Notes under the pieces: model-generated
Told to the model about the DNA's origin: nothing
Databases searched by the model: none
The model's input: the letters and a program-made list of their open reading frames with translations, nothing else
From: Edaphobacter aggregans
Lineage (GTDB): Bacteria; Acidobacteriota; Terriglobia; Terriglobales; Acidobacteriaceae
NCBI RefSeq assembly: GCF_003945235.1
Contig: NZ_RSDW01000001.1
Coordinates: 2,610,001 to 2,642,000 of the forward strand
Direction: 5' to 3'
DNA length: 32,000 nucleotides
Translations under genes and position numbers: made by a program
Shown: positions 24,053 through 26,146 of the stretch, one piece after another
How the letters are laid out: every line of letters starts with the position of its first letter
How positions within the stretch are numbered: position 1 is the first letter of the stretch

Positions 24053-26146
24053 ATGGCAAAGGCAGCGAAGTTAGCCGAAAAGGCTCTCACCTATGGAGCG
24101 AAGGCGGGATGGGCAGTCTTCAACAAGCTGAACTCCATCAGCCCCAACGCCAGCTTTACCCCCAAGTGGAGCGATAAGCCCCTCCTCAAGAGCTACCAGA
24201 AAGAGAAGCCGCCCCTCGGATGGCCCCGTACCACCGACTCCCTCTGCCCCAAGTGCATCCCTGCGATCCGTCAGCAGATCGTCGACGGCAAGCTGCCCCA
24301 CGAAATCCTTCTCAACGAGAAGGTCGGCGAGATCAAGGCCCAGATCATCGAGCGCGATGGCGAAATCCTGATGGTCAAGGACTGCCCCATCCATGGCCAC
24401 TTCGAGGACGTCATGTCCATCGACCCGCCGATGATGAAGCACCTCGAAGACGTCTTCCCCGGCCGCGACATCCGCGCCCATAATGACGAGAAGCTCCACA
24501 ATCACGGCACCTCCACTGTCACGCACGGTCGCGGCTCGGTCCTCACCATCGACCTCACCAACCGTTGCAACATGATGTGCGACCCCTGCTTCATGGATGC
24601 CAACCAGGTCGGCTTCGTCCACGAGCTCACATGGGACGAGATCAAGACCATGCTCGACAACGCCATCACTATCAAGCCGCGTCGTCAGATGAGCGTACAG
24701 TTCTCCGGTGGCGAGCCCACGCTCAGCCCCTACTTCCTCGACGCCGTCGCCTACGCCCGCAAAGTCGGTTACAACTCCGTCCAGGCCGCGACCAACGGCA
24801 TCGAGTTCGCGAAGTCCAAGGAGTTCGCCAAGGCCGCTGCTGAAGCCGGTCTCCGCTACGCCTACCTCCAGTTTGACGGTATCGGTAACGCCGCCAACTC
24901 GCACCGCAAGGTCGGCAACGCATTCGACGTGAAGCTCCAGGCCATCCACAACCTGCACGAAGCTGGCGTCGACATCGTCCCCGTCACCACGATCGTCAAC
25001 GGCATCAACAACGAGCAGGTTGGCCGCATCATCGAGTTCGCCCTCGACAATCCAAAGAAGATCAACTTCCTCTCCTTCCAGCCGGTCTCGTTCACCGGCC
25101 GCGACGAAGATATCTCCGACGAGCGTCGTCACGCACAGCGTTACACCCTGTCGCACCTCGCGCACGATATCCGCAATCAGACCGGCCTCGGCGAATCCAC
25201 CCGCGACTGGTTCCCCATCTCCTTCATGTCCACCTTCTCCGACTGGGCCGACCTCGTGCACGGACCAGACCGCGACTGGGGCCAGCTCTCCTGCGGCTGC
25301 CACCCGAACTGCGGCATCGGCATGGCGCTGATGATCGACAAGGAGACCAAGGAAGCCGTTCCCGTCACCGCGTTCCTCGACGCCGTGCAGCTCGCCAAGG
25401 ACGTCGCCAAGATTAACGACGCCGCCCGCGGCAAGTACCTCTCCATCCTCGGCGTCTCGCTCGCGCTGCTGCGCAACTATGACCCCACCAAGGCCCCCAC
25501 GCACTTCAAGATCATGGACTTGCTGCAGAAGTTCGATAAGTGCTTCGGCGCAACCGGCAAGAACTACGGCAAAGTTACCGCTGACCGCACCATGGCCGAC
25601 ATCGAGAAGCGCCGGTCCGACCGCTGGAACTTCCTCTTCATCGCCGGCATGTGGTTCCAGGACCTGTTCAACTACGACTTCCGCCGCACCGAGCAGTGCA
25701 TCATCCCCTACGCCACACAAGAGGGTGAGATCAGCTTCTGCGCCTACAACACGGGCGTTGGCTGGCGCAACATCATCGAGAAGATGCACATGACCGCCAC
25801 CCTCACCAAGTGGTACGAGGAGCACGGCCGTCACGAGATCTTCGCCGGCGGCAAGAAGGTCGGTCTCGAGAAGGAAGCGAAGTACGACCTCGTCCTCAAC
25901 CAGTCCCACGTCGACGCTGCCGCCAACGACACCTTCGACAAGTCCGGCATCGCCAAGAACGCCCGCGAAGAGAAGATCCGGGCGCGCGACGCGAAGATCA
26001 AACAGGACGCCGAAAACGCCCGCATGGCCAAGCTCTACCGCAAGGAGATCCTCCAGGAGCCCGATGCTCCCGCCGGCTTCATCTCCCTCGGCGAGATCAA
26101 GCCAGCAGCTCCAGTCAAGACGGAAGAAACCGTAGCCGGCGACTAA
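24053..26146 (+). CDS. Large radical-SAM enzyme with N-terminal CPxC...CPxHG metal-binding module (COG1964-like; candidate Tes/GDGT-MAS-type lipid tail-coupling enzyme)
   Basis: AGGAGA lies before the ATG. CX3CX2C motif in TNRCNMMCDPCF and a GGEPTL SAM-binding motif. N-terminal CPKC ... VKDCPIHGHFED. Additional Cys cluster SCGCHPNCG. 697 aa. Confidence 0.9.
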   Translation: MAKAAKLAEKALTYGAKAGWAVFNKLNSISPNASFTPKWSDKPLLKSYQKEKPPLGWPRTTDSLCPKCIPAIRQQIVDGKLPHEILLNEKVGEIKAQIIERDGEILMVKDCPIHGHFEDVMSIDPPMMKHLEDVFPGRDIRAHNDEKLHNHGTSTVTHGRGSVLTIDLTNRCNMMCDPCFMDANQVGFVHELTWDEIKTMLDNAITIKPRRQMSVQFSGGEPTLSPYFLDAVAYARKVGYNSVQAATNGIEFAKSKEFAKAAAEAGLRYAYLQFDGIGNAANSHRKVGNAFDVKLQAIHNLHEAGVDIVPVTTIVNGINNEQVGRIIEFALDNPKKINFLSFQPVSFTGRDEDISDERRHAQRYTLSHLAHDIRNQTGLGESTRDWFPISFMSTFSDWADLVHGPDRDWGQLSCGCHPNCGIGMALMIDKETKEAVPVTAFLDAVQLAKDVAKINDAARGKYLSILGVSLALLRNYDPTKAPTHFKIMDLLQKFDKCFGATGKNYGKVTADRTMADIEKRRSDRWNFLFIAGMWFQDLFNYDFRRTEQCIIPYATQEGEISFCAYNTGVGWRNIIEKMHMTATLTKWYEEHGRHEIFAGGKKVGLEKEAKYDLVLNQSHVDAAANDTFDKSGIAKNAREEKIRARDAKIKQDAENARMAKLYRKEILQEPDAPAGFISLGEIKPAAPVKTEETVAGD

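Follow-up and report, generated by a model that had tools for sequence, protein, structure and literature searches.

The DNA considered here is a 32,000-nucleotide stretch of the Edaphobacter aggregans assembly GCF_003945235.1 (contig NZ_RSDW01000001.1, positions 2,610,001 to 2,642,000 of the forward strand), referred to below as the window. It contains a gene for a 697-residue radical S-adenosylmethionine (radical-SAM) protein that resembles the tetraether lipid synthase Tes, known as GDGT-MAS in Methanocaldococcus jannaschii (MJ0619). The protein belongs to a group of acidobacterial sequences, termed clade A, whose members, by analogy with GDGT-MAS, probably join lipid tails tail-to-tail, giving membrane-spanning lipids based on iso-diabolic acid. 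The gene and the parts of its product are as follows.

24053..26146, plus strand: coding sequence of the 697-residue clade-A Tes-like radical-SAM enzyme, with an ATG start (open reading frame list, homology and model evidence)
24056..24130, plus strand: cationic amphipathic N-terminal helix, residues 2–26 (helix in the AlphaFold2 model; predicted local distance difference test score, pLDDT, 83–93)
24224..24418, plus strand: rubredoxin-type iron/zinc-ribbon domain, residues 58–122 (Pfam PF23545), ligands Cys65, Cys68, Cys111 and His114
24419..24541, plus strand: linker, residues 123–163, in place of the N-terminal [4Fe-4S] domain of GDGT-MAS (alignment)
24542..25132, plus strand: radical-SAM core, residues 164–360 (PF04055), with CX3CX2C at nucleotides 24566–24589, GGEPTL, and Gln343, Ser346 and Arg350
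25292..25750, plus strand: C-terminal auxiliary-cluster/lipid-pocket domain, residues 414–566, with Cys420, Cys549, Cys563, labile Met533 and Tyr553
25823..26143, plus strand: C-terminal extension, residues 591–697, with a charged helix (637–665) and a disordered end (674–697)

A preliminary description of this DNA had listed several motifs, most of which lie in the protein just as described. These are the radical-SAM triad (RCNMMCDPC; Cys172, Cys176 and Cys179), GGEPTL (residues 219–224), an extra cysteine cluster, SCGCHPNCG (Cys414, Cys416 and Cys420), and a charged tail, which comprises residues 591–697 and has 19 Lys/Arg and 19 Asp/Glu per 107 residues. The N-terminal module is also present, as CPKC (Cys65 and Cys68) and VKDCPIHGHFED (with Cys111 and His114), but the spacer between the two halves is 42 residues rather than about 50. 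These motifs are not chance occurrences, because Pfam recognizes both a Radical_SAM domain (PF04055, 2e-19) and a Zn_ribbon_HMPTM domain (PF23545, 1.5e-12).

Conservation extends over the whole protein apart from the first ~30 and the last ~90 residues. Across the radical-SAM core, 80 orthologues average 92% identity to the window protein, and each residue of SCGCHPNCG is kept in at least 98% of 81 aligned sequences; within that motif, the extra Cys414 and Cys416 are clade-specific. Along the C-terminal tail, conservation drops from 72% to 52%. The linker lacks Cys ligands and carries instead a His-rich loop, HNHGTSTVTHG, which is kept among orthologues; the AlphaFold2 model has low confidence at residues 143–149. 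No transmembrane segment is present in the 697-residue protein. The N-terminal helix has a hydrophobic moment of 0.48 and a net charge of +4, and would attach the enzyme to the membrane surface.

Among solved structures the sole strong match is GDGT-MAS (Protein Data Bank entry 7tol), with an E-value of 2.7e-60 over residues 93–588; MoaA is next, at 1.8e-6. The AlphaFold2 model (pLDDT 83; predicted template modelling score, pTM, 0.85) was compared with known structures using Foldseek. Matches to 7tol and 7tom had target-normalized TM scores of 0.84–0.86 and E-values of 2e-34 to 4e-33 and included the C-terminal cluster domain, whereas the remaining matches covered the radical-SAM core or barrel only. 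The preliminary description had proposed comparison with hidden Markov models. When this was done, the best curated model was indeed that of Tes (NCBIfam NF045702), aligned at positions 2–483 of 486, but the score was 319 bits against a cutoff of 450, compared with 463–593 bits for clade-B (see below) and other bacterial representatives. The assignment to the Tes/GDGT-MAS family first made for this protein is therefore right in that it is a full-length homologue, and a homologue of no other characterized protein, but it falls neither in the curated Tes equivalog nor in the clade of that equivalog.

The cofactor sites of the window protein and GDGT-MAS were compared in a MAFFT alignment. The MJ0619 sequence was rebuilt from a HMMER alignment, with numbering that reproduces all of the residues named in the structural study (PMC9433317).

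Rubredoxin-type site: C9, C12, C33 and H36 of GDGT-MAS correspond to C65, C68, C111 and H114 (kept)
N-terminal [4Fe-4S] cluster: C73, C77, C80 and H83 correspond to a gap, H151, S154 and T157 (lost)
Radical-SAM triad: C98, C102 and C105 correspond to C172, C176 and C179 (kept)
SAM loop: Q268, S271 and R275 correspond to Q343, S346 and R350 (kept)
C-terminal [4Fe-4S] cluster: C338, C455 and C470, with M439, correspond to C420, C549 and C563, with M533 (kept)
Tyr459 corresponds to Y553 (kept)

In this alignment the window protein retains every residue linked to catalysis (PMC9433317). Of the four metal sites of GDGT-MAS, the one lost is the N-terminal cluster, and absence of its ligands is common to all of the clade-A sequences aligned. 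This cluster may not be strictly defining for Tes, since it is also missing from a protein of Parcubacteria whose Tes-model score, 584 bits, is above the cutoff.

An exhaustive search of 1.84 billion representative sequences retrieved 599 at E ≤ 1e-30, and the full-length ones were scored against NCBIfam. A neighbour-joining tree (200 bootstraps) was built from a curated set from which partial and chimeric sequences had been left out, and three clades with acidobacterial members can be distinguished.

Clade A, the type in the window: 650–715 residues; Terriglobia, Vicinamibacterales and unclassified Acidobacteriota; monophyletic (99.5%), below the Tes cutoff
Clade B: about 545 residues; Bryobacteraceae, 'Candidatus Solibacter', one Terriglobia metagenome-assembled genome (MAG) and one Aminicenantes MAG; above the Tes cutoff, N-terminal cluster kept
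Clade C: 537–624 residues; Terriglobus roseus WP_014786616 (P0139) and relatives (P0151 and P0187); C-terminal cluster ligands and Tyr459 lost

Clade A has 99.5% support and lies outside a group, supported at 100%, in which GDGT-MAS and clade B stand with the remaining representatives that pass the cutoff, in a distance tree that includes a single archaeal sequence and assumes a root on clade C. A phylogeny had been suggested in the preliminary description as a check on the family assignment; it places the window protein next to Tes, as a sister clade, but not within the GDGT-MAS clade. Branching within clade A approximately follows taxonomy. Among the named matches retrieved, clade B is limited to Bryobacteraceae/Solibacter plus one MAG each from Terriglobia and Aminicenantes, and some of its Bryobacteraceae members carry the NCBI (PGAP) name 'tetraether lipid synthase Tes'. 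In clade C, zinc ribbon and radical-SAM cluster are both retained; its loss of the C-terminal cluster ligands and Tyr459 suggests that it performs different chemistry. The 584-bit protein noted above, P0269 (cluster members P0280–P0282), from Parcubacteria/Minisyncoccales of the candidate phyla radiation, joins M. jannaschii GDGT-MAS with 100% bootstrap support.

Close relatives are found in at least 596 species-level genomes, and the figures for taxonomy and identity given here come from the best 80. These 80 orthologues are 77–96% identical and all are from Terriglobia, subdivisions (SD) 1 and 3, bar one MAG labelled Bordetella, which is probably mis-binned. The closest, from Tunturiibacter psychrotolerans and Edaphobacter MAGs, are 96% identical in amino-acid sequence, and their surroundings are in part syntenic. 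Proteins from Vicinamibacterales (SD6) are 71–76% identical and keep the clade-specific motifs; clade A was seen in every acidobacterial group sampled and is confined to the Acidobacteriota. Median orthologue identity is 81.5%, against 30–68% for the syntenic neighbours. At the DNA level, the gene and its terminator (24035–26195) are 84–90% identical to related Acidobacteriaceae loci, compared with 66–78% for the syntenic flanks. The clade-A gene is under strong purifying selection, and the pattern of conservation fits a vertically inherited core function. Iso-diabolic acid has been reported from SD1, SD3, SD4 and SD6 and is near-universal in SD1 and SD3 (PMC13159169); the clade-A family occurs in the producing groups SD1, SD3 and SD6.

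In the proposed mechanism, a peripheral-membrane enzyme of the Tes/GDGT-MAS superfamily would couple the terminal carbons of two iso-branched C15 tails, forming the core of the glycerol dialkyl glycerol tetraethers of the branched type (brGDGTs). By analogy with GDGT-MAS, the [4Fe-4S] cluster bound by Cys172, Cys176 and Cys179 would reductively cleave SAM, and the resulting 5'-deoxyadenosyl radical would strip a phospholipid tail of a hydrogen atom at its omega carbon. The lipid radical could then be trapped by a sulfide of the C-terminal [4Fe-4S] cluster (Cys420, Cys549 and Cys563, with labile Met533), giving an S–C intermediate of the kind that this cluster forms with the lipid radical in GDGT-MAS (PMC9433317). 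A second SAM would generate a radical on the second tail, which would displace the sulfur and make the C–C bond. The iron site of Cys65, Cys68, Cys111 and His114 probably relays electrons, and the N-terminal amphipathic helix probably keeps the enzyme at the membrane. Bacterial phospholipids with ester linkages are bound by GDGT-MAS itself, and its C-terminal cluster domain contributes to the lipid-binding pockets (PMC9433317).

Homologues matching clade A have figured in the literature as candidates for the coupling step since 2022 (PMC8941075, PMC10087280). New in this analysis are the separation of three clades (A, B and C), the difference in cofactors, the breadth and strength of clade-A conservation, and a likely reason for a conflicting published count. 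Zeng 2022 reported 456 Tes homologues from bacteria and suggested that they take part in making brGDGTs (PMC8941075). In the same study, E. aggregans, a brGDGT producer when oxygen is low, had a single Tes homologue (32% identity, 4e-61), while Koribacter and Solibacter had closer ones (42% and 40% identity). The reported identity and E-value of the E. aggregans homologue match clade A. Two homologues were reported from Solibacter usitatus: Acid_5929, of 545 residues (40.2%, 1.4e-139), and Acid_2410, of 714 residues (30.1%, 4.2e-62) (Halamka 2022, PMC10087280, Table S6). From length, identity and E-value, the only properties matched, we infer that Acid_5929 belongs to clade B and Acid_2410 to clade A.

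Several observations weigh against a coupling role for clade A. As described above, the clade lies outside the group that holds GDGT-MAS, the window protein scores below the Tes cutoff and the N-terminal cluster ligands are absent. All-against-all clustering of open reading frames from the window and 80 related loci revealed no conserved lipid-gene partner, nothing was consistent in four more distant loci, where the neighbours are unrelated, and Pfam and NCBIfam scans of the window found no lipid-pathway genes. The proposed function draws on homology and distribution, because no lipid genes adjoin the radical-SAM gene. S. usitatus had no detectable free iso-diabolic acid though it apparently has the clade-A type protein Acid_2410 (PMC10087280), and in that organism the closer Tes, Acid_5929, could do the coupling. 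Sahonero-Canavesi et al. (2022) found Tes homologues in just three of 14 acidobacteria that produce iso-diabolic acid (E ≤ 1e-50, identity ≥ 30%) and concluded that Acidobacteria may use another pathway. The role of the bacterial Tes homologues was described in 2025 as being without experimental confirmation (PMC11868695), and a 2026 review mentions them as bioinformatic detections only (PMC13459092); papers to 2026 thus agree with the earlier statement that the acidobacterial enzyme lacks biochemical proof.

The published count of three in 14 may itself be an artefact of the 30% identity threshold. Clade-A proteins are 28.6–32.1% identical to MJ0619, and such a threshold would split the clade, since 29 of 81 members fall below 30%; the query in that study was Maeo_0574, not MJ0619. 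The coupling role first suggested for the window gene is still supported by the homology and by the retained catalytic residues, while the position in a sister clade, the lost cluster and the lack of lipid-gene neighbours count against it.

The protein could instead be a lipid-modifying paralogue of Tes that carries out a radical reaction other than omega–omega coupling, for example closure of a macrocycle within one lipid, coupling at another position, cross-linking or sulfur insertion in a tail, or a reaction on another hydrophobic substrate. The true coupling enzyme would then be clade B or an unrelated protein. This is the more serious of the alternatives, although we consider it unlikely. 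It accords with the separation of clade A from the characterized Tes clade, with the score under the curated cutoff, and with a protein in which the N-terminal cluster has gone, while the Cys414/Cys416 pair and an extension at each end have appeared. By their reported properties both types are present in S. usitatus, suggesting that they are not redundant, and the reports linking lipid profiles to Tes point to the closer homologues: a 2026 paper cites Chen et al. (2025) as connecting Tes homologues with iso-diabolic tetraesters in the case of Koribacter and with brGDGTs in that of Solibacter. Such a paralogue would, however, have kept all of the residues known for the coupling chemistry and an identical fold. 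Moreover, E. aggregans reportedly has one Tes homologue, of clade-A profile, yet makes membrane-spanning lipids (PMC8941075), and clade B is narrow among the named matches retrieved, whereas almost all of SD1 and SD3 have iso-diabolic acid.

Action on a non-lipid substrate (a cofactor, a peptide or a small molecule) by a housekeeping radical-SAM enzyme of shared Tes ancestry seems distinctly improbable. The extreme conservation and the solitary gene in a housekeeping-like context without lipid neighbours would suit such an enzyme, and the loss of the C-terminal cluster ligands in clade C indicates that the Tes scaffold can serve other uses. In the window protein, however, the entire C-terminal cluster domain, which provides part of the lipid pockets in GDGT-MAS, superposes on its counterpart, and no precursor peptide or cofactor operon adjoins the gene. 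Among models of SPASM/twitch maturases and cofactor enzymes (NirJ, AhbC/D, MoaA, PqqE, MftC and others), none gave a score reaching its family cutoff (265–650 bits); the best was NirJ1, at 82 bits against 650, and the matches were limited to the core, within residues 140–374. Many Joint Genome Institute (JGI) records, including several members of the cluster, bear the name 7,8-dihydro-6-hydroxymethylpterin dimethyltransferase, which denotes a radical-SAM methylase of class D, and Pfam labels the domain Zn_ribbon_HMPTM. That this name describes the function is scarcely credible. It stems from the original assignment of MJ0619, an activity that Lloyd et al. could not reproduce when they reassigned the protein as GDGT-MAS, and the reaction belongs to methanopterin biosynthesis in methanogens (PMC9433317); there is no sign of a pterin pathway in the window. 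With the MJ0619 assignment withdrawn (PMC9433317), the pterin-methylase annotation was rejected.

Tail-to-tail coupling by the clade-A enzyme is thus the reading that we favour. It can be extended to a more tentative proposal, which we regard as possible but would not yet back: clade A would be the ancestral, vertically inherited iso-diabolic acid synthase of the Acidobacteriota, a Tes variant with three metal sites, without the N-terminal cluster but with the additional CxC pair, that acts in aerobes on ester-linked iso-C15 phospholipids, while clade B would be a later arrival in Solibacter-like lineages, coupling ether lipids into brGDGTs. If this were true, clade A would mark, at the gene level, the principal source of brGDGT precursors in soil, and the conclusion that most producers lack a Tes homologue would be an artefact of the search threshold.

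The leader and the 3' end of the gene contain the following further features.

23824..23852, plus strand: direct-repeat box, CCGTTCAAT-N11-CCGTTCGAT, 201–229 nucleotides before the start codon
23860..23895, plus strand: block GCTTCGAT-N17-TACTCTTAA, conserved in the alignment of upstream regions
24039..24042, plus strand: ribosome-binding site GGAG, 10 nucleotides ahead of the ATG
26170..26195, plus strand: intrinsic terminator, a hairpin then a T-run, inside DNA that aligns with orthologous loci

The preceding open reading frame stops at 23738, leaving the 314-nucleotide non-coding region described previously, and the strong terminator noted at the same time is a stem of 11 bp (seven G–C pairs) with a T-run, 24 nucleotides past the stop codon. 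The gap and terminator are therefore as claimed, but that the gene is monocistronic, which had been stated outright, is only plausible from sequence; it gains support because the intergenic region holds a conserved block. The direct-repeat box matches once in the window, against 0.01 matches expected by chance, and aligns in 11 related loci. In 17 of 80 loci, box 1 (CCRTTCAMTGC) occurs no more than 450 nucleotides upstream of the orthologue, and these sites account for 17 of just 22 matches across 2.5 Mb of locus sequence. The box is possibly the binding site of a regulator. The block at 23860–23895 contains a −35-like TTCGAT (23862–23867) and a −10-like TACTCT (23885–23890), and might be a promoter giving a 5' untranslated region of ~160 nucleotides; a scan with the sigma-70 consensus found no promoter upstream of the gene and did not call this block. 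Together, the box and block are consistent with a regulated promoter that belongs to the radical-SAM gene itself. As a regulator site or promoter, the region 23824–23895 could be tied to the reported oxygen dependence of brGDGT production. The motif GGAGAC is kept in most of the aligned orthologue upstream regions. Rfam gave no match anywhere in the window, hence no known riboswitch in the 314-nucleotide leader. An antisense open reading frame of 696 residues (24071–26161, minus strand) spans the whole gene and was treated as a shadow frame, a usual effect of high GC content.

The commonest neighbours of the gene are an uncharacterized secreted-protein family (29 of 81 loci) and a lytic transglycosylase of RlpA-like type (27 of 81). 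The secreted-protein gene lies directly upstream of the radical-SAM gene on the same strand in those 29 loci. In the window, two tandem paralogues at 21925–22764 and 22815–23738 (both plus strand) share 26% identity (E = 5e-18) and an HQDxRYY motif; the N-terminus of the second product clearly resembles a signal peptide, and Pfam and NCBIfam give no match to either. In a single case, an unclassified Acidobacteriota MAG (GCA_040752275.1, locus L081), a FabH-type beta-ketoacyl-ACP synthase III gene (4399–5463, plus strand) stands directly upstream of the clade-A gene; FabH-type enzymes initiate fatty-acid synthesis. Downstream in the window, an open reading frame with SAD/SRA and HNH endonuclease domains (26184–26900, plus strand) begins right after the terminator, its listed ATG lying inside the hairpin. 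The GC content of this stretch falls to ~0.50, and none of the 80 related loci has the gene, which is probably a small defence or mobile gene that was inserted here. Elsewhere, 10748–13654 (plus strand) encodes a 968-residue protein with CHAT protease and TPR domains, unrelated to the radical-SAM gene.

The brGDGTs are among the most used terrestrial proxies of past temperature and pH, and the enzymes that build their acidobacterial iso-diabolic acid core are to date candidates only. Knock-out work, heterologous expression and gene surveys of the environment all gain a well-defined target in a single, near-universal and very strongly conserved gene such as that of clade A. Telling clades A, B and C apart would keep surveys of 'Tes homologues' from lumping together three different proteins, and may settle the conflict between Zeng 2022, in which homologues are present, and Sahonero-Canavesi et al. 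(2022), with three of 14 genomes. The loss of one Fe–S cluster with the catalytic one kept is also of value to enzymologists who ask what the extra cofactors of GDGT-MAS do.

Among known systems, Mss of Thermotoga maritima and Thermoanaerobacter ethanolicus is likewise a radical-SAM enzyme of tail-to-tail coupling, producing (iso-)diabolic acids, but it belongs to a different radical-SAM family and is set apart from the window protein by its published description. Sahonero-Canavesi et al. (2022) did not find Mss homologues in selected acidobacterial genomes, or Tes homologues in Thermotoga/Thermoanaerobacter. The radical-SAM (seleno)protein TrsS (NCBIfam NF045646) gives the second-best curated model, which covers the zinc ribbon and the radical-SAM core; the window protein scores 210.5 bits on it against a cutoff of 490, lower than its score of 319 on Tes. 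Clade B, the 'true Tes' of the S. usitatus Acid_5929 type, shares superfamily, phylum and proposed reaction with clade A. It differs in passing the Tes cutoff (557 bits for P0185 and 593 bits for P0186), in keeping the N-terminal cluster cysteines and in grouping with GDGT-MAS at 100% bootstrap, and identity between the two clades is ~36%.

The closest comparison is with M. jannaschii GDGT-MAS (7TOL and 7TOM), which has ~30% identity to the window protein and the same architecture from the zinc ribbon through to the C-terminal cluster domain. Between the two ligand pairs of the rubredoxin-type site, the window protein has 42 residues and GDGT-MAS has 20. Relative to GDGT-MAS, the window protein has a conserved extra CxC pair just before the first ligand of the C-terminal cluster, ~60 more N-terminal residues, which include the amphipathic helix, and ~107 more C-terminal residues. 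The presumed substrates also differ: GDGT-MAS uses an ether-linked phytanyl lipid, while the clade-A enzyme would act on an ester-linked iso-C15 acyl lipid.

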